Virus record (IMG/VR): IMGVR_UViG_3300049324_000053
Length of the DNA: 64,000 bases
From: a virus
Reading direction: 5' to 3' (one strand)
Positions 11,216-38,461 of the stretch are shown piece after piece (the first letter of the stretch is position 1; each line of letters opens with the position of its first letter). Both the position numbers and the translations under genes were made by a program. The notes beneath the pieces are model-generated. The model was given only the letters and a program-made list of their open reading frames with translations, made no database searches and had not been told where the DNA came from.

Positions 11216-11587
11216 TTCAGCGTGACACCGGTGTGGGCAGCTGTGTTGATGCCGCGCGTGAGGTTCGCGGTGATGATGCAACCTGTCCGTGGAACGACTG
11301 TCGAGGACAGGTTGATTTTCTCTTCATCGTGCACATGTCATCCACATGGTCTGTGTTAAAGAACTGCTGAGAACACTTGGCTACACTGCAGGCGCCATGC
11401 AAACGTCATGCATGTCGACAGCAGAGCACCTACCTTCTGACCTGCGGTTTACCATGGCTTCATCTTGCAGGCGATACGTGGATCATCAGCGTGATGACAC
11501 GCCGGGACTGTGTATCCGGCACCCGGTGCATCTGGGCGTGGTATGCGATAAGCTCAACGCCCGACCCTCATGCAAGCAGGTGCCCGC

Positions 11588-12499
11588 ATGCCGACCACTC
11601 CACCCGACGACGCCCTGCGTCCCGTCCTGGACCGTGTCATCGCCCTGACCAACGGCAAAGGCGGTGTCGGCAAGACGTCCACCACCGCCGCCCTCGCCGT
11701 TCAGCTCGCCGAAGCCGGCCTACACGTCCTGGCCGTCGACCTCGACCCGCAAGGCGACCTTGCCGACGACCTGGGCTACATCGCGCGCAGCGACCTCGGC
11801 GAGAACCTGATGTCCGCCGTCCTGACCGGCCGGCCGCTGACCCCGCTGACCGGCGTACGCCCCGGCCTGGACGTCGTGCCCGGCGGTGCGCATCTCGAAG
11901 ACCTCGCCGACGCCCTCGCCGCGATGAACCGCCGGCGTGACACCCGGCTGGCGTTCGCGCGCAGCCTCGCCGCCACCCTCGCCGCCACCCATTACGACTT
12001 CGTGCTCGTCGACACCCCCGGCAAAGGCCCGGTCCTGCAGATGCAGGCCCTCGGCGCCGCCCGCTGGGTGCTCATCCCGTTCCGCTCGGACACCAGCAGC
12101 ATGAAGAACCTCGCCGAGGTCGCCCGCCGGTTCGAGGAGGTTGCCGACGTCAACCCCACCATCGCGGTGCTCGGCGTGTTCCTGCACGGCGTCACCGCCG
12201 GCGCGACCGCCGTCCGCCGCGACGTCTACGCCAGGATCCGGGAGTTGCTGGGCAACGGGGTGCCGATCTTGTCGTCCTGGGTGCGGTACGCCGAAGCCGC
12301 CGCCGTCGACGTGCGCGCCCGCGGCCAGGTCCCCGGGGAACTCGAACGGCTGCCCGCCGCCGGACCCTGGTACGCCCGGCTGCGTGACCCCGCACTGCCC
12401 ACCGGACCGGCCGCGAGCAGTGCCACCCTCGCCGGCGACTACCAGCACCTCGCCGAGGAGATTTTCACCCGCCTGAGCGCCGAGGAGACCACGTCTTGA
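11588..12499 (+). CDS. parA: ParA family partition ATPase
   Basis: NGKGGVGKTS deviant Walker A, VDLDPQG, YDFVLVDTP. Confidence 0.95.
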   Translation: MPTTPPDDALRPVLDRVIALTNGKGGVGKTSTTAALAVQLAEAGLHVLAVDLDPQGDLADDLGYIARSDLGENLMSAVLTGRPLTPLTGVRPGLDVVPGGAHLEDLADALAAMNRRRDTRLAFARSLAATLAATHYDFVLVDTPGKGPVLQMQALGAARWVLIPFRSDTSSMKNLAEVARRFEEVADVNPTIAVLGVFLHGVTAGATAVRRDVYARIRELLGNGVPILSSWVRYAEAAAVDVRARGQVPGELERLPAAGPWYARLRDPALPTGPAASSATLAGDYQHLAEEIFTRLSAEETTS

Positions 12500-12987
12500 G
12501 CAGCGACGACCCGCGGCCGCCGCACCCCGCTTTCGCCGCGCTCGACCCGGCGGCCCGCTCCCAGAAACTTGCCGCGCTCGCCCTCGCCCGGCCGCCGGCC
12601 GCCCCGGTGCAGGCGGTCCCCGCCTCGATCCAGCAGCCAGGCACCGCGACGCAGCTGCTGCAGGTATCGCTGTGGATCACGGCTGGTCAGCATCGGCGTA
12701 TCAGCAACGACCCTCGCGCGAACGGCGACGTCGTTCTGGACATCATCGAACAGCTGTCCGGACAGCTGGCGGACATCTTCGCGCCCCGCGACGGGGAACA
12801 CTTCACCGGTCCCCGCCGCGGGCTGGTGCGCGGCCCGTTCAGCCAGCTGTACATCCAGCTGACCCGGGAGGACCGCGACACCCTCAACCTGCTCGCCGCG
12901 CGCTACGTGCCGATGCCGTCCGGGCGCGGCAACCGGTCAGCGTTCGTGCGTGCCGTGCTCGCCGCGGCGTTTACGCGCAGCAGCTGA
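12496..12987 (+). CDS. putative centromere-binding partner (ParG-like RHH)
   Basis: Overlaps parA stop; C-terminal LYIQLTREDRDTLNLLA...NRSAFVRAVL strand-helix-helix. Confidence 0.65.
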   Translation: MSSDDPRPPHPAFAALDPAARSQKLAALALARPPAAPVQAVPASIQQPGTATQLLQVSLWITAGQHRRISNDPRANGDVVLDIIEQLSGQLADIFAPRDGEHFTGPRRGLVRGPFSQLYIQLTREDRDTLNLLAARYVPMPSGRGNRSAFVRAVLAAAFTRSS

Positions 12988-13049: not shown

Positions 13050-13574
13050 ATGGGCAAGCCGAAACCGAATCCGGACCGTGCACTAGTTCCGGTCGTCGTG
13101 GCCAACAGGCTCGGCGTTCGCGTGAGCGTACTTGCAGGCTGGATGCGTGCAGTTGGCGCCGACGGTGATGGACCATTGCGTGAGGCGGACGTGATCAAGT
13201 GGCGCGCTGACCCGAGTTCGGCGCCTGAGTGGTTTCGTACGAACATGCAGTCGTTCTATGCCGATCGCGAATTGCGGCGGCAGGCCAGAGCTGAACGTGA
13301 CGCACGGTTGGCGGCGGAGTATCGGGATGCCGTATCCGCGGCCTACGAGGTCGTTTGCGAGCTTCTGCGGACGCGGGACCGGAAGTTGTGGCAGGGTCGA
13401 TGGCTCGAACGGCATCCGGCGCATGAACAAGCATTCCTGGAGATCGTGGTGCGCGCGATGAAGGACAGCGGCCTGGCCTTCGACGGCGAACCGGATTTTA
13501 CCTACCTCGGTATCGAGGAACGCGAAGCGCTGCGCGTGTGCGGCTACGACGTTCCGGAGCCTGCGCTGTTGTGA
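13050..13574 (+). CDS. hypothetical protein with N-terminal HTH-like segment
   Basis: VVANRLGVRVSVLAGWM; TAGCAT 6 nt before ATG. Confidence 0.6.
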   Translation: MGKPKPNPDRALVPVVVANRLGVRVSVLAGWMRAVGADGDGPLREADVIKWRADPSSAPEWFRTNMQSFYADRELRRQARAERDARLAAEYRDAVSAAYEVVCELLRTRDRKLWQGRWLERHPAHEQAFLEIVVRAMKDSGLAFDGEPDFTYLGIEEREALRVCGYDVPEPALL

Positions 13575-13810
13575 CGTGAGGCCGCACGTAGCACGCCGTC
13601 GGCCCACTGCTTGCCCTGCGCCCGCTGTTCCGGTGTCAGTGGGTCGAGGTCTTCTTCTATCAGGGCGATCGCGCGGCTCATCTGCACGATCTTGTCCCGG
13701 CGTTCCAGTTCGGCCGCCAACGCCGCGGTGGTCAACGCCGAGATGTCCAGGTGCGCGGCACGCGCCGCGGCCAGCAGTTCGTCCGGCAGACTGATGCGTA
13801 CTCGGGCCAT
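13544..13810 (-). CDS. orphan CcdA/VapB-like RHH antitoxin
   Basis: MARVRISLPDELLAAARAAHLDISALTTAALAAEL...LDPLTPEQRAQGKQWAD; no toxin adjacent. Confidence 0.75.
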   Translation of the reverse strand: MARVRISLPDELLAAARAAHLDISALTTAALAAELERRDKIVQMSRAIALIEEDLDPLTPEQRAQGKQWADGVLRAASRHNSAGSGTS

Positions 13811-13843: not shown

Positions 13844-14731
13844 TCAGCTGGTCGTCGGGTCCATGAACCGGGCGTACTCGCCCTGGAAGACGACGGGGAT
13901 GGTGCCGGTTTTCCCGTTGGGGTTCTTGGCCACGATCAGCTCCGCTTCCGTGATCTGCGGGTCGTCCGGGTGTCCTTGTTCCCGGTGGAGCAGGATGACG
14001 ATGTCGGCCTGTCGTTCGCTGGCATTGGACTCGTATAGGTCGGCCATTGTCGGGCGCTTTTCCGTCGCCGGTTCCTGGGGGTGTTCCAGTTGCGTGGTCG
14101 CCACGATCGTTACGTTCAGCTCCATCGCCAGCAGTTTGAGCGCCCGGCTGATGTCGGCGATCTCCAGATGGCGCGACTCGGAGTCCGGCGAGTCAAGCAG
14201 CTCCAGCCGGTCGATCACGATCAGAGCCAGTCCCGGATCGAAGTTCAGGCGGCAGGCTATCGCCCGGATCTGGGCGACAGTCGGGAATGGCGACCCGTCG
14301 ACGAAAAGCGGCGTGGTTTTCAGTTTCTCCAGCACCGGCGTGAGTCGTGCCCAGCCTTCGTCGCTGACGCATCTGTTACGTAGCTGCACCACCGGGACGC
14401 CGGCCTCAGCTGCAAGCAGCCGTTGTACGACGGCTGCATGGCTCATCTCTGGTGTAGCGAACAGTGTCGACACTTGATGCTTCATCGTGGTGTTGCGGGC
14501 GAAGCTCAGCGCGAGAGCTGATTTGCCGGCGGAAGCCCGCGAGCCTATGACAACGAGCTGGCCGGGGCGCAGTCCTCCGTCGGTGAGTTCGTCGAGCGCT
14601 GCGATCCCGGTCGGCAGGACAGCCGGCCGCGTACGGTCGGTTCGTTCTGCCGCCAGTCTGATCATGGTCTCTTGTAGTGCGGTGCTGATGTGGATGGGGT
14701 CTTTGCCGGGCGAAGCCTCGCTGGTCTCCAT
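13844..14731 (-). CDS. DnaB-like helicase, C-terminal domain only, arginine finger lost
   Basis: PTGIAALDELTDGGLRPGQLVVIGSRASAGKS; IDRLEL; KNPNG in place of KHRNG. Confidence 0.9.
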   Translation of the reverse strand: METSEASPGKDPIHISTALQETMIRLAAERTDRTRPAVLPTGIAALDELTDGGLRPGQLVVIGSRASAGKSALALSFARNTTMKHQVSTLFATPEMSHAAVVQRLLAAEAGVPVVQLRNRCVSDEGWARLTPVLEKLKTTPLFVDGSPFPTVAQIRAIACRLNFDPGLALIVIDRLELLDSPDSESRHLEIADISRALKLLAMELNVTIVATTQLEHPQEPATEKRPTMADLYESNASERQADIVILLHREQGHPDDPQITEAELIVAKNPNGKTGTIPVVFQGEYARFMDPTTS

Positions 14732-14779
14732 GGTCGTGACACGTTTCCTTCTTCGTGGTCGTTCGACGCGTACTGGTTG

Positions 14780-15835
14780 TTATCGGCCTTCGGAGGCGTG
14801 CTCCGTCGGCAGCTGGATGAATCGGCTGTAGTCATCCTGATAGAGCAGCGGCACGACACCGACAGGGCCGTTGCGGTGCTTCTCCAGGATCAGATCGACC
14901 TCGCCTGCCTGAAAGCCCTGTGGGTCGTAGGCCGCATCCCGGTGCAGCATGAGGACCATGTCGGCATCCTGCTCAAGGGTTCCGGACTCGCGCAGGTCCG
15001 ACAGCATCGGCCGGTCGCCCTTGCGCCGCTTGAGGTTGCGGTTGATCTGGGAGACGACGACCAGCGGCACATCCAGTTCTTTCGCCAGGTGTTTTAGTGA
15101 CCGGTGGGTGAGGGCGACGTCCTGATGGTGCTGGTCGGTGCGCTGAGCGTGCCGTAGCAGCTGCAGGTAGTCCACGATGACCAGCGACAGGCCGCGCTGT
15201 TGCTGCAGCCGTAGGGCTTTACTTCGCAGCTTGGCGACGGACAGGTAGGACGAGTCGTCGATGAGTAGTGGAACCGATTCCAGGGCGTCAAGATGACGGG
15301 TGAGGCGGATCCATTCCTCGTCGGACAGGTTGGGCTTCTTGTGGCGCATCTCCGGCAGGGGAATGCTTGCTTCGGCGGCCAGCACTCGTGTGGTGATCTC
15401 CGATTGGCTCGTTTCCAAGCTGAACAGTGCCGTCGTCTGGCCCTGCGCGATGGCAGCATGGCGGGCGAAGTCCAATGCCAGGGAGAACTTCGGAATGGTT
15501 CGTGGTCCTGCTATCACGATCAGCTGTTGCGCCCGTAGGCCGCCGCCGGTCAACCAGTCCAGCCCAGGGATGCCGGTCATCACCTGATCTGTCCGCTTGA
15601 CACCGTTCTGCTGGGCCCTGATCGCCTCTAACGTGGCTTGTACGCTTTCTCCGGCATGCACAAGGTTGCGCGTTGCGTGCGTTGCGGCGGTTGTCGAATA
15701 CATCACCGTCTGCCCGGGGGCAGCCGAGTCGTCCTCGTCGGTGGCGCGGGTGTAGCCGTACTGAGCCAGGTCCAGGCCGGCGGCCCGAGCCGCGCGCAGC
15801 AGTTCGGTCGGAAGCGTGATCCTCATCGGGCGCAT
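14780..15835 (-). CDS. DnaB-like helicase C-terminal domain with broken Walker A and an N-terminal antitoxin-like RHH fragment
   Basis: AGPRTIPKFS in place of ARPxxGKS; DYLQL, SQINR, LRESGTLEQDAD, KHRNG intact. Confidence 0.9.
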   Translation of the reverse strand: MRPMRITLPTELLRAARAAGLDLAQYGYTRATDEDDSAAPGQTVMYSTTAATHATRNLVHAGESVQATLEAIRAQQNGVKRTDQVMTGIPGLDWLTGGGLRAQQLIVIAGPRTIPKFSLALDFARHAAIAQGQTTALFSLETSQSEITTRVLAAEASIPLPEMRHKKPNLSDEEWIRLTRHLDALESVPLLIDDSSYLSVAKLRSKALRLQQQRGLSLVIVDYLQLLRHAQRTDQHHQDVALTHRSLKHLAKELDVPLVVVSQINRNLKRRKGDRPMLSDLRESGTLEQDADMVLMLHRDAAYDPQGFQAGEVDLILEKHRNGPVGVVPLLYQDDYSRFIQLPTEHASEGR

Positions 15836-15857
15836 GAGCGAAGTATGCCGATCGTTG

Positions 15858-17210
15858 TCAGTGGGCTGCTAGGTCCATGAACCGGCTGTAATGGCCCTGG
15901 AACGCGACGGAGATGACGCCGGTGGGTCCGTTGCGGTGTTTGGCCACGATCAGGTCGGCCTCACCTGCGCGGGGGCTTTCCGGCTCGTACATGTCCTCGC
16001 GATGCATCAGGATGATCACGTCGGCGTCCTGTTCGATGGCACCTGACTCACGCAGGTCCGACAGCATCGGCTTCTTGTCCGCCCGCGACTCCGGGTTGCG
16101 GTTCAGCTGCGAGAGCGCCACGACTGGTACATGCAGTTCCTTGGCCAGCAGCTTCAGCGACCGGCTCATCTCGGCGACCTCCTGCTGGCGTGATTCGGTG
16201 CGTTTGGTTGAGTTCAGCAGCTGCAGGTAGTCCACCACGATCAGCGCCAGATCGTTCTTCTGCCGCAGCCGGCGGGTCTTGGCCCGGATTTCGGTGATGG
16301 TCAGGTACGGCGAGTCGTCGACGAACAGCGGCGCCGCGGTCAGGTTCCCGTATTGCAAAGCGAGTCTGTCCCAGTCCTCGTCTTGCATCTTGCCGGCACG
16401 CAGTCGCTGCAGCTGGACGCGCGCCTCCGCGGACAGCAACCGGGTGGTGATCTCTGAACGGCTCATCTCCAGGCTGAACAGTGCAGCAGCTTTCCCGTGA
16501 CGCAGCGTGGAGTTGCGTACGAAGTCCAGCCCGAGGGTGGATTTGCCGACTGCGGGACGCGCCGCGATGATGATCAGTTGCCCGGGGTGCAAGCCATTGG
16601 TGAGGTTGTCCAGGTCCGTGAAGCCTGTGGGCACCCCATGGGCCTTGCCGTCTTCCTTTTGGCGTGCCTCGATCTCCTCGATGGTGGGCTGGATCAGATC
16701 ACTGAGACGGACGACGTCCTGGTTCATCTGCTGCTCGGCGACGTCGAACACCGCCGCCTGCGCCGCGTCCACCATGTGATCAATGTCTGGTGATGGTGCG
16801 TAGCCGAGCTGCACGATGCGGGTGCCGGCCTCGATGACGCGCCGTGCGATGGCCTTCTCGGACACGATCTGGGCGTAGTACCCGGCGTTCGCCGCGGTCG
16901 GTACCGAGTTGATCAGCGTGTGCAGGTAGGGCAGGTCGCCGGCGCGGACGAGCTGGTCCTGGCGTACCAGCTCTGCTCCCACGGTGACGACGTCGGTGGG
17001 GATGTTGTCGGTGAACAACCGCACGATCGTGTCGAACACGATCGCGTGCCGTGGCAGGTAGAAATCGGCGCCGCGCAGCACCTCGACGACGTCGGCGATG
17101 GCGTCGGTGCTCAGCAGCATTCCGCCCAGAACGCCCTGTTCAGCGGCCTCGTCGTGCGGCGGGGTCCGGTCGAACGTGCGGTTCGCGCCGTTCATGTTCC
17201 CGTCGGTCAT
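15858..17210 (-). CDS. dnaB: replicative DNA helicase, full length
   Basis: PPHDEAAEQGVLG N-domain; AARPAVGKS, FSLEMS, DYLQL, SQLNR, LRESGAIEQDAD, KHRNG. Confidence 0.97.
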   Translation of the reverse strand: MTDGNMNGANRTFDRTPPHDEAAEQGVLGGMLLSTDAIADVVEVLRGADFYLPRHAIVFDTIVRLFTDNIPTDVVTVGAELVRQDQLVRAGDLPYLHTLINSVPTAANAGYYAQIVSEKAIARRVIEAGTRIVQLGYAPSPDIDHMVDAAQAAVFDVAEQQMNQDVVRLSDLIQPTIEEIEARQKEDGKAHGVPTGFTDLDNLTNGLHPGQLIIIAARPAVGKSTLGLDFVRNSTLRHGKAAALFSLEMSRSEITTRLLSAEARVQLQRLRAGKMQDEDWDRLALQYGNLTAAPLFVDDSPYLTITEIRAKTRRLRQKNDLALIVVDYLQLLNSTKRTESRQQEVAEMSRSLKLLAKELHVPVVALSQLNRNPESRADKKPMLSDLRESGAIEQDADVIILMHREDMYEPESPRAGEADLIVAKHRNGPTGVISVAFQGHYSRFMDLAAH

Positions 17211-17690
17211 CCATGCTCCCTTGCTGGTGCCAGGAGCGACAGCCTACGGGCCGCGAAGGAAGCACCGGGAGCAGACGGGGCGGGCGTCATTGTCCAGCCA
17301 AGGCTCGCCGTCGGACGTATCGGCAGGGTCTCCGCATGTCGCGCAGCGGTCCGCCGGAGGGCTCGGATCCGGGGGGGTGCTCATGGCTTCGAGTGTGCCG
17401 TACCGGCGTGTCCACGGTGGGGGTACTGCGCGACGGCGGCAGGATGCGCTAGGGTCGTCGATCAGGCCACCTGGCCTGAGAAATAAATGAAGACCCAGCA
17501 TCGACGCCAATCTGCGCTGGGCCTTCATACGAACTTCGAGCTGAGAGCACTCTACATGCCATCTTCTGGGCTGTGCAACTCGCCGGGCGCATCGCGCCGC
17601 GAGTCCTCATCTCGTTCACCTGCCGTCGCGGGCGTTAACGATGTCGTAACCGACATGGCGCCTACCGCAGGTGCATTGATCATGACAATA

Positions 17691-17732
17691 GAAGAAGCCC
17701 CCGCAGCTTCGCCGGCCAGTGGGGGCTTCTTC
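17691..17732. promoter_or_regulatory. strong hairpin in the leader upstream of the rep-like gene
   Basis: GAAGAAGCCCCC-N18-GGGGGCTTCTTC perfect 12-bp inverted repeat. Confidence 0.6.
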
Positions 17733-17796
17733 TTCCAACCGAACCCACGAGACACACGAAGGACCGAAAATCTGACCGTGTGTCACGAAGGACCGA

Positions 17797-19608
17797 ATGA
17801 GCATCAGCTTAGCTTCTACGCAGCCCCCTGACCATCACTATGGTGTGGCGTCCGTCACTGAACAAGTGCGATGGTTCGCCACTGATCTGAACATTCGGAA
17901 CGCGGCTCGTGACGCATTGTGCGGACATGGTCGCATCGGGTCATTCGCTGACTGTGTCCTGGAACGGATGCGTCTGCTCGTCGACTGGCGTGAACCGCTG
18001 GCCATGGTGCCCGGCGCGCCGTCGGGCACCGACCCCACCGGCGGGCACAGCATCCATTCACGCGCTCAGCTGCTCGGCGTGCGTCATGAGCATCTGGCCC
18101 GGGTCGAAGCGCTGCTCGTCGCACACCAGCTGGCCCTGTACGACACCGACGGCAGCCTGCGGATCGCGGCCTGGAAGCTCGCCGGCCGCCAGTCGGCCAA
18201 CAAGCACCGTTACGGCCATGTGCGGACCACGCAGTCGACCTACGACAAGTGGTGGCAGGCGCTGCTGGACGCCGGCCTGCCATCCTTCGTGCGGTATCTG
18301 GTCTTCGGTGCGCTCGCCGCCCTGGAACGTGATCCGGCGTTGACCGGCGACGACGGTGAACTGCTGTGCGATGTGATCTCCACGGCCGAGCAGCTACGGA
18401 TACCGCGCAGCACCTGGGCGCGCTGGCTGGTGCTGCTCGTCAAGCATGGGGTGCTGATGCGGATGGGGCGCGGCCGGTACCGGCTGGTGTTCGACGCGGC
18501 GGTGCGCCGGCGGCCGGCCTTCCTGCTGGTCACGACGCCATCGGTGTCGTCGCTCGTCGAGGCGGCCGACGACGAGGCGGCCGACCCAGCTGGCGAGACG
18601 GCTGACGAACCGGCCGACGACCCGGCCGGCGACCCGGACCGAACGCTCGTTGAGGCGCCGCGAACTCTCACCGGCGGAACACGATCAAGCTTCCAGGGGG
18701 GTGACGAGAGCGTTTGGGCTCTCACCGGCGCAGAATCGCACCGCTCTGACCTGCGGGTTCGCGGCCCTGTAGAAGCAAAAGAATCTTTAAAGGAAGAAGC
18801 TAAAGCTGCACAGCTACGAGCAAGCTCAGGCTTCTTCCTCGATCACTTCAAAGAGCCGGCCGGGCGGCGGGTGCGGGCGCTGCTGGAGATCCTCATGAGC
18901 GTTCGTCTCGACCTGGCGCCAAGGATGACCGATTCGTTCCCGTTGCGCCGGGCGCTGGGCGACGTCATCGCCGCCGGTGACGAGCTGAACTACCCCGACT
19001 GGCGGGTCTGCCGCGACGTCAAGGAGCACTGGATTTACTCCGCGGACACCGTCGGTGGCGTGGTCTACGCCATGAAGGCGCTGGCCAAGGACTACCAGCA
19101 GCTACGCGACCGCAAGCAGGCCGCGGCGGCACGCCGCCGGCTGCTCGATGCCGACCAGGTGCCTTCAGCTTCGCCGAAGCCGACCGCCGAGCAGCTGGCG
19201 GCCGCCGATGCCGCGCTGGCCGCCAAGGCGGACGCCAACGAGGCCGCTGTTGGCGCTCAACAGGCCCAGGCTGCGCGAGAACGGGCTGCTCAGGCGCAGG
19301 CGTTGGCTGCGCGGGAGGCAGATCCGAATTCGTCGTTCAACATGATCAGGGCTGCCGGCGCCGCGGCGAGGCGGCAGGACGAGCGTCGTACGGCGGTGTT
19401 CGCTGCGCTGCGCGCCGCCGAGCAGAACCAACTGGCGAGGCGACTGGTGCCGGGCGAGTCGCGGGGCCCGGCGTGGAAGCCGTTGCCGGAGAGGGTGGCG
19501 AGGTTGGTGCTGGCCGAACTGGACAAGCGTTGCGGTGCGGATGCGCCGGCCGCGCGGTTGATCGCGTGCGCCAGGACGGTGCTCGGTGGGGAGAGTGCGG
19601 TCGCATAA
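17797..19608 (+). CDS. putative replication initiator (winged-helix Rep)
   Basis: Divergent from dnaB; wHTH IPRSTWARWLVLLVKHGVL; acidic linker whose DNA has repeats and an A-rich tract. Confidence 0.6.
   Translation: MSISLASTQPPDHHYGVASVTEQVRWFATDLNIRNAARDALCGHGRIGSFADCVLERMRLLVDWREPLAMVPGAPSGTDPTGGHSIHSRAQLLGVRHEHLARVEALLVAHQLALYDTDGSLRIAAWKLAGRQSANKHRYGHVRTTQSTYDKWWQALLDAGLPSFVRYLVFGALAALERDPALTGDDGELLCDVISTAEQLRIPRSTWARWLVLLVKHGVLMRMGRGRYRLVFDAAVRRRPAFLLVTTPSVSSLVEAADDEAADPAGETADEPADDPAGDPDRTLVEAPRTLTGGTRSSFQGGDESVWALTGAESHRSDLRVRGPVEAKESLKEEAKAAQLRASSGFFLDHFKEPAGRRVRALLEILMSVRLDLAPRMTDSFPLRRALGDVIAAGDELNYPDWRVCRDVKEHWIYSADTVGGVVYAMKALAKDYQQLRDRKQAAAARRRLLDADQVPSASPKPTAEQLAAADAALAAKADANEAAVGAQQAQAARERAAQAQALAAREADPNSSFNMIRAAGAAARRQDERRTAVFAALRAAEQNQLARRLVPGESRGPAWKPLPERVARLVLAELDKRCGADAPAARLIACARTVLGGESAVA
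18665..18810. promoter_or_regulatory. candidate replication origin inside rep (iteron-like repeats + A-rich tract)
   Basis: CTCTCACCGGCG at 18665 and 18719, CTCTGACCTGCG at 18744, then GAAGCAAAAGAATCTTTAAAGGAAGAAGCTAAAG. Confidence 0.4.
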
Positions 19609-26665: not shown

Positions 26666-27202
26666 GTGGGACGCGCCGACTTCGACAACGCCAAAAAGCT
26701 GTACCCCAGTGTCAACATGGGCGAAGCCGAATGGTTCGCCTATTTTCAGACCCCCGCCGGCGAACAAGCCATCGGCTACATCATGCGCGACATCTACGAC
26801 GAGGTGCTCGCCCTGGAAGAACGCGACACCGGCCGCGTGCCCATGGGCCGGCGCGCCGCCCGCCCCGCCGTGCCGCTGTCCACCGTGTACGCCAAAGTGT
26901 TCCCCCCCGCTTACAGCAACGAACCGTTCCCCGTGGCGCTGCGCACCCTGATGAACGGTCGTTCGATCCGCGCGTTCGCCGCGAAAGTTCCCATGGCGCA
27001 CGTCCCGCTGCACCGGCTGCTGGCCGGTGCCGACACCCCGGACCTGCGGCTCATGGAAGCCATCGCCGCCGCCGCCCGCGTCAAGCCAACCTACTTTTTG
27101 GAATACCGCGCCCAGTTCGTCGCCCTCATGGTGCAGCAAGCATTTCTCGCTCGCCCGCATCTGTCGATCCGTGCCATCCATGACCTGAAAGTGACCGCCT
27201 GA
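26666..27202 (+). CDS. XRE-like HTH protein
   Basis: LRTLMNGRSIRAFAAKV...LHRLLAG..TPDLRLMEAIA; coupled to TerL start. Confidence 0.65.
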   Translation: MGRADFDNAKKLYPSVNMGEAEWFAYFQTPAGEQAIGYIMRDIYDEVLALEERDTGRVPMGRRAARPAVPLSTVYAKVFPPAYSNEPFPVALRTLMNGRSIRAFAAKVPMAHVPLHRLLAGADTPDLRLMEAIAAAARVKPTYFLEYRAQFVALMVQQAFLARPHLSIRAIHDLKVTA

Positions 27203-29943
27203 TGACCGCCAAGGCGATCGTTGCGCCCAACGAAGAAGAGTCCTATCTGGTGGCGCTGCTCGACTCGATCGACGGCATCGACCTGGCCGAGGCATTCTGG
27301 TCGGACCCGTCCACCGCGACCGGCTGCTTTCGCGTCTGGGACTTTCAGTGGAAGTGGTTCACCTGCACCGACACTTTGCAGGCTGATCAATGCGGGCGTG
27401 GTGTCGGCAAATGTCTCGCCCCCGACACCCGCCTGACCCTCGCCGACGGTCGTCGTATTCGGGTTGCCGACCTTGCCGCCGCGACCGACCCCACCGCGAT
27501 CCTGGCCACCGTCGCCCGCGCCGACGACGCCGTGCACGGGTTCGAACTACGACCCGGCACTGTGTACGTTTCCGGACATAAGGCGTGCCTGCGGATCCGC
27601 ACCGTCAGTGGCCGGATCCTGACCGTCAGCACCGACCATCCGGTGTTCACGAGTACCGGCTGGCGCAAGGCCGGCGAACTGGCCGGCGACGACTCGCTCG
27701 CGATCGCCGCCTACCAGCCGGTGTTCGGCCGCAAGGTGCTGCCCCGCTATCTGGTGCGGCTGCTGGCACACGTTATCGCCACCGGCGGCGTCGGTGACCG
27801 ACCCCGCGACGTGTGGTACTCCTCGGCCGACGCCGGTACCGACACCAGCTACTACGACGACCTGGACGCCACCCTTGGCGCTGCCAAACTCGTCGCCCGG
27901 CCCGTCTCTCGCCGCGACCGCATGATCAAAATTGTGGGGGAACGGTGCGGCCCCGGCAACGGCATCGGCCCGTTCATGGCCCAGGCCGGCATGACCGGTG
28001 CCCGCGCCGGCACCATGCGCATCCCCGACCTGGTCTTCGCCCTGCCCGCCCGGCAGCTGGCCCTGTTCCTCGGCCGGCTACTGCAACCCCCCCACGGTGT
28101 TGCCGTGCGCGCCGGCACCGTGCGCTATCAGTGCGCCAACCCGGCGATGGCCGCCGACCTCGCGCATCTGCTCACCCGGTTCGGTGTCACCAGCCGGATC
28201 CGCAGCAAACTGCTGCCGTCCATGCGGGGCCGCACCCGCACCGACGCCCGCATCCAGGTCGTCACCATCGACGACCCTGCAAGTCTCGTGCGGTTCGCCG
28301 CCGTCGTCGGCCCCCACGTGCTCGGCGGCACCCGCACCGCCCTCGACGCCCTGGTCGCCGGCCTGGACCCGGCCGCGTTCACCGCGGCCGCTGCCCCGCC
28401 GGTCGTGGTGTTCGACTCGGTCGCCGACATCACCGACGCCGGCGAACAGGATGTCTATGACGTGACGATGTCCGGCGAACCACAGCTGTTCGCCGACGAC
28501 GTGCTCGTGCACAACTCCACGAAAATCATCATGCGCGGGTTCGCGCATCCTTTCCACGCCCCCGGCGAGCACATGTTCATCACCGCCCCCGAGCTGAACC
28601 ATCTGGGACCGCTGACCGACGGGCTGCAGAACCGGTTCGAAGGCACCCGTATCGGCGCCGAGATGATGACCAAAGGCCGTGGTGGGGGCATCACCAAGCA
28701 GCCGCACTGGCAGGCCCAGTTCCTCAACGGCGCGAAGATCATCACCCGGCTACCGAACCGGGACGGCCGCGGCGTCAAAAGCCAGCATGCCAGCAAACTG
28801 CACCTCGACGAGGCGCAGGACTATCCCGCCGCCGGCTGGAACGAAGTCCAGCCCACCTTCAAACGTGGCGTGCCCGGCGCGCAATGGCATGTGCATGGCG
28901 TTCCCCGCGGTGTGCGGGACAACTTCTACGCCATCACCAGCGACGAGTCCAAGTTCACCGTGCACCGGTATTTTGCCTGCCACCGCCCGGACTGGTCGGA
29001 CAACGAACGGGCCGAGGCCATCCGCAACTACGGTGGTTCGCCGCGGGATCCTGATTACAAGCGCAACATTTTCGGCGACCATGGTGATGCGACGAACCCG
29101 CTGTTTGTGTTGTCTCGGTTCATTGCCGTCTGCGACCTGGACCCTGGCAGTGACTACAACACCGCCGTCTACGCCGCCCGGTCCCTCAGCGACGAACTGC
29201 TCGCCGACCACGACCTCGACGCCCTGCTCGACCTGCCCGCCATCCACCGCATCGGCTATAGTCGCGCACCCCGCGGCTACAGCGCTTACTACGGCGGCAT
29301 GGACGTCGGCATGACGAATCACCCATCCGAGGTGTTGATCTTCGGCCAGCGCACCGGCACCGAGCTGATGGAGCTGCTGCTGCGCGTGCATATGGAGCGT
29401 GTCGACACCGAGCGTCAGGTGATGGTCGTGCAGCGGCTGTTCGACTTCTACGGCAGCAAGCTGATCGCGTTCGCCCTGGACAGGACCGGTATCGGTCACT
29501 CCGTGTGGGACCTGTTGGACAAGTCCTACGTCGGGGATCGGGTGTACGGGTACCACTTCAGTTCGAAGGTCCCGGTTGGTATCCGGGAAGCGGCCGAGGG
29601 CGAGGATCCGCACGACCTCGACGCGCTCATCGAGATGCGCGACCTGGTCGAACACGCCTCCGACGTGCTGCGCGTGGACTGGGTCGACGCCGGCCGGCTG
29701 CAGCTGCCCGCTGATGACGAGCTGCTCGGTGAATGGCAGGGGCAGACGTACAAGGTGGAGAAATCCGGCGGAAACCTCTACGGCAAAAGGGTGTATTCCA
29801 AGGGAAAGATGCACACCTTAGACGCAGGCAAGATGGCGGCCGCGGCAAAGACATTGCCGCCCATTCAGGATGCCATCGACCGGGCCCGTGCGGTGCACGA
29901 CGTCGACCCGGTGTTCGACGAGTTCCTCGGATCGTCCTGGTGA
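27202..29943 (+). CDS. terL: terminase large subunit (intein-containing)
   Basis: Walker A GRGVGK/S split by intein; Walker B LHLDEAQD; nuclease GGMDVG, ALDRTGIG, HTLDA. Confidence 0.85.
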   Translation: MTAKAIVAPNEEESYLVALLDSIDGIDLAEAFWSDPSTATGCFRVWDFQWKWFTCTDTLQADQCGRGVGKCLAPDTRLTLADGRRIRVADLAAATDPTAILATVARADDAVHGFELRPGTVYVSGHKACLRIRTVSGRILTVSTDHPVFTSTGWRKAGELAGDDSLAIAAYQPVFGRKVLPRYLVRLLAHVIATGGVGDRPRDVWYSSADAGTDTSYYDDLDATLGAAKLVARPVSRRDRMIKIVGERCGPGNGIGPFMAQAGMTGARAGTMRIPDLVFALPARQLALFLGRLLQPPHGVAVRAGTVRYQCANPAMAADLAHLLTRFGVTSRIRSKLLPSMRGRTRTDARIQVVTIDDPASLVRFAAVVGPHVLGGTRTALDALVAGLDPAAFTAAAAPPVVVFDSVADITDAGEQDVYDVTMSGEPQLFADDVLVHNSTKIIMRGFAHPFHAPGEHMFITAPELNHLGPLTDGLQNRFEGTRIGAEMMTKGRGGGITKQPHWQAQFLNGAKIITRLPNRDGRGVKSQHASKLHLDEAQDYPAAGWNEVQPTFKRGVPGAQWHVHGVPRGVRDNFYAITSDESKFTVHRYFACHRPDWSDNERAEAIRNYGGSPRDPDYKRNIFGDHGDATNPLFVLSRFIAVCDLDPGSDYNTAVYAARSLSDELLADHDLDALLDLPAIHRIGYSRAPRGYSAYYGGMDVGMTNHPSEVLIFGQRTGTELMELLLRVHMERVDTERQVMVVQRLFDFYGSKLIAFALDRTGIGHSVWDLLDKSYVGDRVYGYHFSSKVPVGIREAAEGEDPHDLDALIEMRDLVEHASDVLRVDWVDAGRLQLPADDELLGEWQGQTYKVEKSGGNLYGKRVYSKGKMHTLDAGKMAAAAKTLPPIQDAIDRARAVHDVDPVFDEFLGSSW
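27412..28515 (+). mobile_element. intein (368 aa) with degenerate LAGLIDADG-type endonuclease region
   Basis: Begins CLAPDTRLTLADG, block B STDHPVFT, ends VYDVTM...DVLVHN followed by Ser. Confidence 0.92.
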
Positions 29944-32825: not shown

Positions 32826-33668
32826 TCAGGGTGAAGCGGCCAGGATGCCACGTACCGCGTCGTACGTCGCCCGGTAGTTGGCACGGGGCCCGTTGCGATG
32901 CTTGGCCAGCGTGGTGCGCAGCTTGTCGTGTGGGCTGTCCGGATCCGGGTGCACGAACAGCACCAGGTCCGCGTCGTTCTCCAAGCTGCCGGACCCGGCC
33001 AGGTCGGTCAGCGCCGGCACATGCTGGTTCGCCCGTGACGCGGGCGCCTTGGCCGCGGTGCTGGTGACCAGGACTGCGGCGGGCAGCGCATGGGCGAGTG
33101 ACTTGAGCGTGACGGTGGCGTGGTCGACGACGTCGGCGGTGGTCGCTGTGGGCCTGGCGTCGTCGAGGAGATTGCCGATTCCGTCGACGACCAGCAGCCG
33201 CACACCGAAGTGATCGGCGGCCAGCTGTGCCTGGACGGCGATGACGTCGATGGTGCGTGCCGTGTCGTTGATCATTATTGGGGCGCGTATCAGCCGCTGG
33301 ATCTGGTGGTAGTCCGGGTTGCGCGGGTCGGGGCCGCATCCGATGGTGGTGAGCCTGGTGCTGATGTCGTGGGCGTGGTTGTCGCCGGCGGCGGCCGGCA
33401 CGGCGAACACGAGGGTGGGGACGGTGCGTTCCACGGCGGCGTGATGACACCAGGTCAGTAGCAGGTCCCGGGCCAGGTCGGGGTTGACGGCGGCGATGAC
33501 GGCCAGCTGGCCGGGGTGCAGGCCGCCGGCGAGCAGGTCGTCGAGGTAGGTGGCGCCGGTGGGGATCGACGGGGCGAACGTCTCGTGGCGGACGAAGGCC
33601 AGCACATCGCCGAGGCCGTCGCGCAGGGTGCCGACGATCGGTGTGTTGTCGGTCGTGGTGTCTGGCAT
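32826..33668 (-). CDS. highly degenerate DnaB-like C-terminal domain (no Walker A)
   Basis: IPTGATYLDDLLAGGLHPGQLAVIAAVNPDLAR; VVDG; LAGSGSLENDADLVLFVH; KHRNG. Confidence 0.85.
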   Translation of the reverse strand: MPDTTTDNTPIVGTLRDGLGDVLAFVRHETFAPSIPTGATYLDDLLAGGLHPGQLAVIAAVNPDLARDLLLTWCHHAAVERTVPTLVFAVPAAAGDNHAHDISTRLTTIGCGPDPRNPDYHQIQRLIRAPIMINDTARTIDVIAVQAQLAADHFGVRLLVVDGIGNLLDDARPTATTADVVDHATVTLKSLAHALPAAVLVTSTAAKAPASRANQHVPALTDLAGSGSLENDADLVLFVHPDPDSPHDKLRTTLAKHRNGPRANYRATYDAVRGILAASP

Positions 33669-33864
33669 CCGGGCCCCCGTTGTGCTATCAGCACTCATGC
33701 AAATGATCGTAAAGGTTGACGGCGACAACGCGGCGAAAAGCTGTGGAGTATTCCGCGATTCTGCACTTTTCGGGCTTCTACGAGTTGTGGGCGTCTGAGC
33801 GACGCAGCGAGGCGCAGAATCGGGCAGATTCGGCTTCCTGCGGACAGGCGCCGATGACAAACGT

Positions 33865-36044: not shown

Positions 36045-36308
36045 GTGGCTGACGCTGTGGCAGCGCTGTACCGGCAGGCCGCGCACTGGGAGCGCGCCTT
36101 CACCGCCGACGAACGGCGCAAGCATGCCAAGAGCGGGGCCGCGATGCCCGACGGATCGTTCCCCATCCTGAACCGCACCCATCTGCACGCTGCCCTGACC
36201 CTTTACGGGCATGCCAAGGATCCGGCGGCCGCCAAACGGCACATCATCAAGCGGGCGAAGGCGATCGGCGCGACCGGCATGCTGCCCGAAGGCTGGACCA
36301 GCTCGTGA
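36045..36308 (+). CDS. DUF6582-like head-associated small protein
   Basis: AMPDGSFPI...AAAKRHIIKRAKAIGA..LPEGW; GGAGG RBS. Confidence 0.7.
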   Translation: MADAVAALYRQAAHWERAFTADERRKHAKSGAAMPDGSFPILNRTHLHAALTLYGHAKDPAAAKRHIIKRAKAIGATGMLPEGWTSS

Positions 36309-38461
36309 ACGTCGAAGCCGCCTTGTACCGGGCAGCGGGCTGGACGCCGCACCGGTACGACCCGGCCACCGGTGGCCGTTGCCGTACGTGCGCGCAGCGC
36401 CGCTACACCGGTGAGCATGCTGCCGCCGAGAACGCGGCCGTCCGGCCCGCCGGGCAGCTTCCCGCACCTCCCGGGATGCGCACCCCCCTGCCGCCGGGAG
36501 CGCTCGCGAACCTGCCCGAAGGATTGCGTGGCACCCGTCATCCGTACGCGAAGCTGCCGTCGCCGGCGGCCTGGTCGTCCAAGGACTGCGCGATCTGCGG
36601 GCTGCCCGCCGGCGAACCCGTGCATCTGGATCCGGAAACCAGCAAACCGCTGACCTACGACATTTCGTCTGCGCCCGACGCGATGGCCACCGCCGACGCC
36701 GGCGACGACGACGAACCGGCCGGCGGCGACCCCGACGCCGGCGACGACTCCGCCCCGGCCAGCGCGATGATCGGTTTCTGGTTGCCCACCGCGCTGGCTC
36801 TGACGCTGTTGCCGCCCGGTATCGACGGCGCCGAAGAACCTGATGATCTGCATCTGACGATCGTGACGCTCGCCGGCCTGCCCGACGCCGGTGACGGTCC
36901 GGCGATGGCTACCGTGCTGGCGGCGGTGGCCATCGCCGCCGGACGTATCGCCCCGTTCACGGTCACCCTGTCCGGTGTCGGAGTTTTCACCGCCGGCGAA
37001 AAGCCGGTCACCTACTACTCGGTCGACTCTCCCGACCTGCCCGATGTGCGTGACGTTCTCGTCGACACGCTGACCGGTGCCGGTGTCCCGATCGACACCA
37101 CCCACGGGTTCACCCCGCACATCACACTCGTGTACGACGTCGCCGCGGTACCCGCCCCGCCGACCGACCCGATCCTTATCGACCGGCTCGCCTGCGCCAT
37201 CGGCGAGGACCGTTACGAGTTCCCTCTTGTCGGCAACCCCGACAGTGACAACGACGATGCCAGTGACAACGACGATGCCGGTGACGACGGTATGGCGGCC
37301 GTCATGGATCCGGCCGTCATGGACCCCGGTCCCGCCGGCTGGTCGCAGCCGTTCAACCGGCGGGACCGGGCCCACACTCAGCCCCGCGCCGAAGATGCCG
37401 GCGATGCGGGCCCCGACCGCGGCAGCGCCGGCAGCACCGCGGCGCACACCGAACGAGCGTTTGTCACCGAGGCCAATGGCAAGTTGCTTGTCACCGCCCC
37501 CAGCGATCAGATCCTCGCGCCGATGGCCCGCACCCTGGCCGCCGGCGCCACCGGCAACCAGCATTTCTCCTGGCTGACCGGCCGCCTCGTCGGCGCCGAC
37601 GAGCCCAACCGCAACGGTGCGTTATGGACGTTCGGGGATCTGCAGTTCGGCCAGCCCGGCGTCCGTCACGGACCGTTGAACTGGCTGCACGAGGGAAAAC
37701 ATGTGATCGGCACCCTGGCCGATTCCGTGCTCGTGCCTCACGAGCAGGCTGGCGACGTCGGCGCGCACATCGCCACCCTCGCCGCGGTGTGGTCATGGTT
37801 GTACCCGGCCGAAACCGAAGTGATTCGTTCCGCGTCCGACGCCGGCCGGCTGTGGCAGTCGATGGAATGCGTGTCCGAATCGGTCGAATGCGCCGGTGAC
37901 ACCGGCTGTGGACGCACCGTCGCCTACGGCGACTACCTGTCCGGCACCGGCACCTGTGCACATCTGCGCGAACGCAGTGCGGTGCGCCGGTTCGCACGCC
38001 CGTCGTTCCTCGGTGCCGCCGTCATCGTGCCGCCGGTACGTCCCGGCTGGGCCGGCGCCGACACCCGGGTGCTGTCCGCACTGTCGGCGGTGTCCGCGGA
38101 CAGCTATCAGGCTGCCGGCTGCCCCGACATGAGCGCATCCGAATGGGAACGGCTGATGGGTGAGGTGCTGACGTATGCCGGATCCGGCGCATCCCAGGTC
38201 ACGTCGACGGGCGGCAGCCCTGTCCCGGGTGGTGCGCAAGCTGCGAGCGGCGGCGCACCGGGCTCGCACCGCACCACCTCCGCCACCACCACCGGCGAAC
38301 TCGCCGCCGGCGCCGCCGGCGGTGTGAACGACCCGATGCGTGAACTGGCGTTGAGCCTCGCCGGGCTGACCAGCGTGCTGGCCGCCGAACGCAGCGCACC
38401 GCGGTTGCGCCGCATCGAACGTGACGACGTTGGCCGCATTACCGCTGTCATCGACGAATAG
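36305..38461 (+). CDS. 2H phosphoesterase domain fused to putative prohead (capsid maturation) protease
   Basis: DLHLTI (His183) and FTPHITL (His272) HxT pair; later PNRNG, LNWLH, WQSMEC, Cys/His zinc insert, FLGAAVI. Confidence 0.75.
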   Translation: MNVEAALYRAAGWTPHRYDPATGGRCRTCAQRRYTGEHAAAENAAVRPAGQLPAPPGMRTPLPPGALANLPEGLRGTRHPYAKLPSPAAWSSKDCAICGLPAGEPVHLDPETSKPLTYDISSAPDAMATADAGDDDEPAGGDPDAGDDSAPASAMIGFWLPTALALTLLPPGIDGAEEPDDLHLTIVTLAGLPDAGDGPAMATVLAAVAIAAGRIAPFTVTLSGVGVFTAGEKPVTYYSVDSPDLPDVRDVLVDTLTGAGVPIDTTHGFTPHITLVYDVAAVPAPPTDPILIDRLACAIGEDRYEFPLVGNPDSDNDDASDNDDAGDDGMAAVMDPAVMDPGPAGWSQPFNRRDRAHTQPRAEDAGDAGPDRGSAGSTAAHTERAFVTEANGKLLVTAPSDQILAPMARTLAAGATGNQHFSWLTGRLVGADEPNRNGALWTFGDLQFGQPGVRHGPLNWLHEGKHVIGTLADSVLVPHEQAGDVGAHIATLAAVWSWLYPAETEVIRSASDAGRLWQSMECVSESVECAGDTGCGRTVAYGDYLSGTGTCAHLRERSAVRRFARPSFLGAAVIVPPVRPGWAGADTRVLSALSAVSADSYQAAGCPDMSASEWERLMGEVLTYAGSGASQVTSTGGSPVPGGAQAASGGAPGSHRTTSATTTGELAAGAAGGVNDPMRELALSLAGLTSVLAAERSAPRLRRIERDDVGRITAVIDE

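Follow-up and report, generated by a model that had tools for sequence, protein, structure and literature searches.

Two degenerate DnaB paralogs kept open by selection beside an intact helicase gene in a viral genome

The reading frames of two degenerate DnaB paralogs, encoded directly downstream of a complete dnaB gene in a viral genome, are maintained by selection and are not neutral wrecks, a conclusion on which five tests agree. The genes lie on the minus strand of a 64,000-nucleotide stretch of DNA (the window), which corresponds to bases 8922-72921 of a 130,739-bp IMG/VR virus record (IMGVR_UViG_3300049324_000053) that CheckV rates as 92% complete. We call the complete gene A and the two paralogs B and C; the three open reading frames had been pointed out in an earlier reading of the sequence (the original prediction), and all are indeed uninterrupted, at the positions given in Table 1. 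DnaB-family helicases are treated as homo-hexamers, with six identical composite ATP sites firing in sequence, whereas the natural paralog set described here separates the halves of the composite site into different polypeptides kept by selection. The reading that we favour, with a probability of about 0.5, is that B and C are not helicases themselves but accessory subunits docking on rings of the DnaB type.

Domains and motifs of the three proteins

Gene A encodes a complete DnaB, as had been predicted, with both Pfam domains (DnaB N-domain, PF00772, 100.8 bits; DnaB_C, PF03796, 346.8 bits), a TIGR00665 score of 530.8 bits that passes the cut-off of 385.25, and Bst DnaB as its top PDB match (2e-120). 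Every motif is present, including a canonical Walker A (AARPAVGKST, 16536-16565), KHRNG (15927-15941) and the R-E-S-G loop, which we take to hold the contacts with single-stranded DNA (ssDNA) made by R381 and G384 of the Bst protein in PDB 4ESV. By alignment, K223 and R426 of A correspond to Bst K216 and to R420, the trans-acting arginine finger, whose published roles were used for the motif mapping (PMC12214026). The gene is preceded by an AGGGAG Shine-Dalgarno-like site, and the protein keeps 98 of the 100 columns of the C-terminal domain (CTD) that are conserved at ≥97% in relatives, a set that we refer to as near-invariant.

The N-terminal domain (NTD) of DnaB forms a collar and binds primase, and both paralogs had been predicted to lack it. 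In agreement, PF00772 is found in neither, and each matches DnaB_C only (252.5 bits for B, 221.8 for C), with the full profile covered, while their TIGR00665 scores (294.9 and 236.8 bits) both fall under the cut-off. The prediction holds for C, which aligns to DnaB from position 143 onward, but only in part for B, in which the globular head alone is gone and residues 12-84 still match positions 106-190, comprising the hairpin and the linker. The linker helix, with Q174 and T176, is kept in both proteins. Matches to Pfam DnaB_C have E-values of 1e-65 to 1e-75 and those to Bst DnaB of about 2e-46; PHROGs likewise places both proteins in DnaB-like replicative helicase, and Pfam and NCBIfam give only RecA-fold families of the DnaB, KaiC and RadA/RadB types (also AAA_25), with no match to the helicase loader families DnaC/DnaI, DciA/DUF721 or lambda P. 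B and C are predicted to fold as DnaB CTDs, their AlphaFold2 models having a confident RecA core, accompanied in B by low-confidence N-terminal helices.

The catalytic lesions that had been described are present in both paralogs. The P-loop of B is destroyed, reading AGPRTIPKFS (15482-15511) where the family has A-A-R-P-x-x-G-K-S-T, so that PKF replaces GKS and four invariant residues are altered, among them Gly to Pro and Ser to Phe; the catalytic Glu, the Walker B Asp, the SQ sensor, LRESG (14981-14995) and KHRNG (14867-14881) are all retained. In C it is the P-loop that is intact (GSRASAGKSA, 14516-14545), together with the Glu, Asp and Gln, and the arginine finger that is lost, KNPNG (13913-13927) having Pro in place of the finger Arg. 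The DNA loop of C is also altered, with LYESN (14024-14038) for LRESG (R387Y and G390N), and the protein reads TQLEH for SQLNR and DRLEL for DYLQL; the last motif had been reported as lost, which is true of its Tyr and Gln but not of the Walker B Asp. The motifs do not vary across 235 aligned relatives, none of which has the variants of B and C, and this indicates that the variants are not normal family variation.

The damage is, however, far wider than the catalytic motifs to which the original prediction confined it. B keeps 70 and C keeps 66 of the 100 near-invariant columns, and with 30 and 34 columns lost both proteins are broadly remodelled and not simply point-inactivated. The lesions had also been called complementary. 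This applies to the key catalytic residues, which are indeed reciprocal, but not to the pattern of loss as a whole, as the columns lost in both proteins (10) are as many as independent loss would give (10.2 expected), a chance-level overlap that leaves reciprocity to the headline residues only. Given the observed loss rates, the chance that C would keep five cis residues (K, S, E, D and Q) while B keeps the five-residue finger motif is estimated at 4-9%, which makes the complementarity suggestive but not compelling.

Origin of the paralogs

Among 503 DnaB-family proteins the best BLAST match of both B and C is A, and in maximum-likelihood trees from which the other long branch had been removed each attaches directly to A; in the joint tree the three lie on one side of a branch with 90% SH-aLRT support. 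Pairwise identities are 45% for A and B, 44-45% for A and C and 36% for B and C. The end branches measure 3.5 (B) and 5.9 (C) substitutions per site against 0.14 for A; over the trees, the branches of B and C are 15-40 times longer than that of A. In the simplest history, an A-like gene was duplicated in tandem and the copies then accelerated strongly, the exact order of events being uncertain because of long-branch effects.

In the viral, protein, phage and plasmid collections searched, the closest matches to B and C outside this genome are ordinary DnaBs of at most 50% identity. Several candidates for additional relatives were rejected: short DnaB matches turned out to be fragments or miscalled chromosomal dnaB genes with canonical motifs (for example P0004, in an ssb-rpsR-rplI-dnaB context), a second dnaB on small Nocardiopsis plasmids was an assembly concatemer, and a plasmid gene downstream of dnaB has no similarity to C. 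As for A, its sole viral relative (L012, at 55% identity) carries a single dnaB, and more than one place matching DnaB was found in only 3 of the 1327 phage records that have a match.

A further DnaB paralog, D, the fourth DnaB-type protein of this set, lies elsewhere in the window (32826-33698, within the segment 32826-33941) and also consists of an NTD-less, degenerate DnaB CTD. It has no Walker A (AAVNPDLARD, 33465-33494), catalytic Glu or SQ sensor, and keeps the Walker B Asp, DLAGSGSLENDAD (32967-33005; DLxGSGSLENDAD), AKHRNGP (32886-32906) and an intact H4 motif. Its single orthologue P0240, which is 64% identical, has the same lesions and perfectly conserved finger and H4 motifs; an exhaustive profile search gave no further family members beyond the cluster of D itself, and the family seems confined to this lineage of phages. 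An ATPase-dead DnaB core bearing the finger is therefore conserved in at least two phages of this lineage and, B being of the same type, the conservation of D supports a real function for such proteins. A one-residue GG insertion common to B, C and D was considered as a synapomorphy and offers weak evidence only, as it recurs in 38 of the 503 family members.

Selection versus decay

We have compared the two paralogs with what neutral decay would produce. The phylogeny and the ratio of nonsynonymous to synonymous rates (dN/dS, or omega), which had been proposed as a check, attach B and C to A and reject omega=1. When neutral drift is simulated from A down to 45% identity, a mean of 4.2 stops accumulates and the frame stays open in 1% of the runs for each gene. 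The insertions and deletions are all in frame, three between A and B and three between A and C. The residue of A is retained in 27-42% of the variable columns and in 72-74% of the invariant ones (Fisher p=4e-5 for B and 2e-3 for C), and the replacements are conservative, with mean BLOSUM62 scores of +0.06 (B) and -0.12 (C) as compared to -0.72±0.11 in stop-free neutral simulations, that is, 5-7 standard deviations above neutral. In a branch codon model fitted by maximum likelihood, omega is 0.087 for B and 0.135 for C over a background of 0.054, values which are rough for reasons given below, and omega=1 is rejected (likelihood-ratio test statistics of 41.6 and 28.9). The profile of GC content over the three codon positions is coding-like in both genes, the third-position value (GC3) being 0.77-0.78 as compared to 0.85 in A.

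A number of observations weigh against the reading of B and C as maintained accessory proteins. The codon model assigns one omega per branch and the synonymous sites are near saturation. The NG86 estimates of dN/dS between the paralogs are higher (0.46-0.63); these are upper bounds, since the third-position identity of the paralogs (0.41-0.61) is no higher than that between A and distant outgroups (0.42-0.62), which indicates synonymous sites close to saturation. On the same ground, a reading of B and C as recent duplicates evolving at an omega of about 1, drawn from NG86 and four-fold-site identity, was rejected, as outgroup pairs show a like third-position identity. In each protein about one third of the near-invariant residues is lost, spread across the domain, a pattern as much in keeping with general relaxation as with targeted remodelling. 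Searches of 5.8 billion clustered proteins, viral contigs, a phage collection and plasmids gave no orthologue of either paralog and thus no sign of conservation across lineages, and B has no recognisable Shine-Dalgarno sequence. The function of B and C may also have been lost recently, after a long constrained history.

Proposed role and alternative explanations

In the mechanism that we favour, A would be the working DnaB of the element, and B and C would derive from an A-like gene by tandem duplication, loss of the head domain and then much faster evolution than that of A, with purifying selection keeping a folded RecA-type core and the linker helix. Judged from their motifs, homo-oligomers of B or of C cannot form a complete ATP site, and neither protein can be an autonomous helicase; B would neither bind nor hydrolyse nucleotide triphosphates in its own P-loop, and C, which by alignment lacks the ssDNA-contact residues, would be unable to activate the ATP site of a neighbour. 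Docking would occur through the conserved interfaces of the DnaB CTD and linker helix, both between the two proteins and between them and a ring of the DnaB type, for which that of the co-transcribed A is the simplest candidate. On such a ring an exposed P-loop face would receive the arginine finger of B (or D), and an exposed finger face the P-loop of C; both faces are left open at the breach of the DnaB lock-washer, and the outcome could be a ring held open for loading, a ring capped and thereby braked or poisoned, or a gated activity. Alternatively, B and C could pair into one composite ATP site acting as a switch. The more specific proposal that B and C are matched half-site subunits, which either cap both sides of the opened lock-washer breach or form one composite site, and thus an ATP-gated loader or brake made from helicase paralogs, is tentative and, on balance, unlikely. 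If true, it would be a bacterial-virus counterpart of filament capping by Rad51 paralogs and the first natural hetero-oligomeric assembly of the DnaB family.

Another possibility is that the two paralogs have no function and are left over from tandem duplication, their frames still open and their products still foldable through incomplete decay, or through the polar effect that nonsense mutations would have on a downstream gene for a ribbon-helix-helix (RHH) protein. The scattered loss of near-invariant positions, overlapping as independent loss predicts, is what such leftovers would show, as are the long branches of B and C, the lack of orthologues in the collections searched, the missing Shine-Dalgarno sequence of B and the slightly lower GC3. 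It is difficult to reconcile with them that so few neutral runs stay open, that every insertion or deletion is in frame, that retention tracks column conservation and that omega=1 is rejected; polarity would account for the open frames only, leaving the conservative replacements unexplained, and D, the third of the degenerate paralogs, has a conserved counterpart in another phage. We thus regard leftovers as an unlikely explanation, if one to be taken seriously. The alternating hetero-hexamer put forward in the original prediction finds no support in the chance-level overlap of the losses, the 4-9% estimate and the DNA-contact residues missing from C. In its form of a B3C3 ring, which would combine the P-loop of C with the finger of B in three live ATP sites and work as an additional helicase or translocase lacking the NTD, it would draw on the reciprocal lesions, as C keeps K, S, E, D and Q and B keeps KHRNG and the DNA loops, on the linker helix kept in both, and on an N-terminally truncated mycobacteriophage DnaB-type protein that still unwinds DNA (PMC4523182). 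C has, however, lost H3 residues in addition to R387 and G390, dozens of other invariant sites are changed in the two proteins, and the complementarity is not statistically compelling. Moreover, inactive subunits are poorly tolerated in the sequential hydrolysis of this family: hexamers of the DnaB-family protein T7 gp4 are reportedly poisoned by single inactive subunits during DNA-dependent hydrolysis (Crampton et al., 2006). Taken together, these points render such a ring improbable.

The target of B and C could equally be the DnaB of the host instead of A. That one or both proteins act on it, by dominant-negative shut-off, by superinfection exclusion or by handing the host helicase to the phage origin, is in our view rather unlikely. 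P1 Ban, a phage-encoded DnaB homologue, is reported to form mixed multimers with E. coli DnaB, and host-type actinobacterial DnaBs are 43-48% identical to B and C, as compared to 45% for A. Dominant mutations of Twinkle work through mixed hexamers (PMC2638771). The position of the two genes directly downstream of the element's own dnaB, co-oriented with it and beside parA, suggests instead a role in the replication of the element. That B and C serve as decoys, drawing off a host defence which senses or attacks phage replicative helicases, is very improbable, as no gene context supports it and we know of no defence system that senses the DnaB CTD.

Relation to known systems

A belongs fully to bacterial DnaB (Geobacillus stearothermophilus, PDB 2r6a/4esv; TIGR00665), with which B and C have the linker helix and the RecA-type CTD in common; the two lack the globular NTD, and each is without one half of the composite ATP site and has about one third of the invariant residues changed. 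NTD-less DnaB-type cores are already known from mycobacteriophages (PMC4523182), as is a DnaB analogue from phage P1. In the mycobacteriophages the RecA-core-only DnaB-like proteins form a distinct deep clade and are catalytically competent, and the truncated Wildcat gp80 is still a helicase, so that a core without the NTD can function (PMC4523182). B and C differ from that clade, as far as it is known from the description in that paper, in having broken catalytic motifs and in being recent offshoots of canonical DnaB, their proximity to canonical actinobacterial DnaB and to A arguing against membership. The Ban protein of P1 is likewise a DnaB homologue of a phage that lives as a plasmid, and is 36% identical to C; it is, however, full length, active and present in a single copy in P1.

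Rad51 paralogs cap and modulate Rad51 filaments. These proteins (Rad55-Rad57, RFS-1/RIP-1, BCDX2) and the non-catalytic alpha subunits of F1-ATPase may be likened to B and C, being RecA-fold paralogs with degenerate or non-equivalent nucleotide sites that assemble with, cap or regulate a catalytic homologue; they belong to other branches and assemblies of the RecA superfamily, and we claim no homology beyond the fold. Helicase loaders bind the CTD tier of DnaB and hold the ring open (PMC13696075, PMC12214026), and a functional analogy of B and C to the AAA+ loaders DnaC/DnaI, to DciA and to lambda P is conceivable without any relationship in sequence. Literature searches gave no account of hetero-hexamers of DnaB in nature, of sets of degenerate paralogs of it, or of a helicase gene with paralogs that split the composite site. 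Although the A-B-C arrangement is known from one poorly sampled phage lineage without a cultured host, it provides a ready-made system for the effect of a finger-only or a P-loop-only subunit on a ring helicase, be it loading, braking, capping or poisoning, and an accessory role of B and C would extend the short list of mobile-element controls over helicase loading by one built on paralogs.

Genomic context and additional features

The GC content is about 66%, and the viral record encodes tail proteins, a DNA ligase, clamp-loader-like ATPases, a Sak4-like protein and an intein-bearing gp4-type primase-helicase; a 2731-residue open reading frame among the tail genes is a candidate tape measure, without a confirming family match. 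A conserved protein of 353 residues is most similar to proteins of Rhodococcus and Gordonia phages, and their low identity (at most 49%) points to a poorly sampled actinophage lineage.

The order of the genes on the minus strand is A, B, C and the RHH gene, with spacers of 22, 48 and 33 nucleotides, and no terminator-like site was found on that strand inside the cluster. An independent sequencing run (Logan assembly) holds the same 5.7 kb at 100% identity, so that the cluster is not an assembly artefact. Being on the same strand, after short gaps and without an intervening terminator-like site, the RHH gene probably closes the A-B-C operon, and its product is a candidate autoregulator. The first ~24 residues of B (MRPMRITLPTELLRAARAAGLDLA; 15766-15835) resemble the start of the RHH gene (13741-13810), with 14 of 21 residues identical (E=0.06) and about 76% identity in DNA over 54 nucleotides; a recombinational origin is conceivable, but this part of B can be aligned to the hairpin helix of DnaB as well and is helical at low confidence in the AlphaFold2 model.

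The ParA gene and its overlapping partner gene form a plasmid-type partition module that adjoins the helicase cluster. Similar modules of ParA and dnaB occur on actinobacterial plasmids, and from this likeness the cluster appears to be a plasmid-type module by which an extrachromosomal prophage is maintained and replicated; such replication outside the chromosome has been described for mycobacterial prophages (PMC7157519).

Table 1. Positions of the main features in the window
Feature	Position	Strand	Basis
A, complete DnaB replicative helicase, 450 aa	15858..17210	-	Pfam, TIGR00665, motifs
B, DnaB paralog without globular NTD, 351 aa	14780..15835	-	Pfam, motifs
C, DnaB paralog, linker helix and RecA core only, 295 aa	13844..14731	-	Pfam, motifs
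D, NTD-less DnaB-CTD paralog, ~290 aa	32826..33698	-	Pfam DnaB_C, 77.6 bits
CcdA-like RHH gene, 88 aa, 33 nt past C	13544..13810	-	Pfam CcdA, 24 bits, above cut-off
ParA ATPase	11570-12499	+	Pfam AAA_31/CbiA/ParA
Partner gene, 163 aa, overlapping the end of parA	12496-12987	+	
Divergent intergenic region, 587 nt, with short inverted and direct repeats, then 603-aa open reading frame	17211..19608	+ (reading frame)	

The 603-residue reading frame on the other side of the divergent region is a candidate initiator; it has no family match and no similarity to a plasmid helix-turn-helix protein. Upstream of it, the segment 17690-17797 contains a perfect 13-nucleotide inverted repeat (AGAAGAAGCCCCC/GGGGGCTTCTTCT) and two exact copies of CACGAAGGACCGAA at a spacing of 29 nucleotides, and these repeats, which lie beside dnaB, are possible operator or origin elements.

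Outside the window, the record encodes a 996-residue fusion of a Toprim primase and a DnaB_C helicase (G000:C1:101242-104232; L008:10243-13233, + strand) with a LAGLIDADG-type intein-like insert, so that the phage has a gp4-type replicative helicase besides the DnaB cluster. Within the window, a 913-residue reading frame (27202-29943, + strand) has sub-cut-off Pfam matches to intein splicing and LAGLIDADG domains and may be a second intein-bearing gene, and a 718-residue protein (36305-38461, + strand) carries a 2'-5' RNA ligase/LigT-like phosphoesterase domain, its size being unusual for that family.

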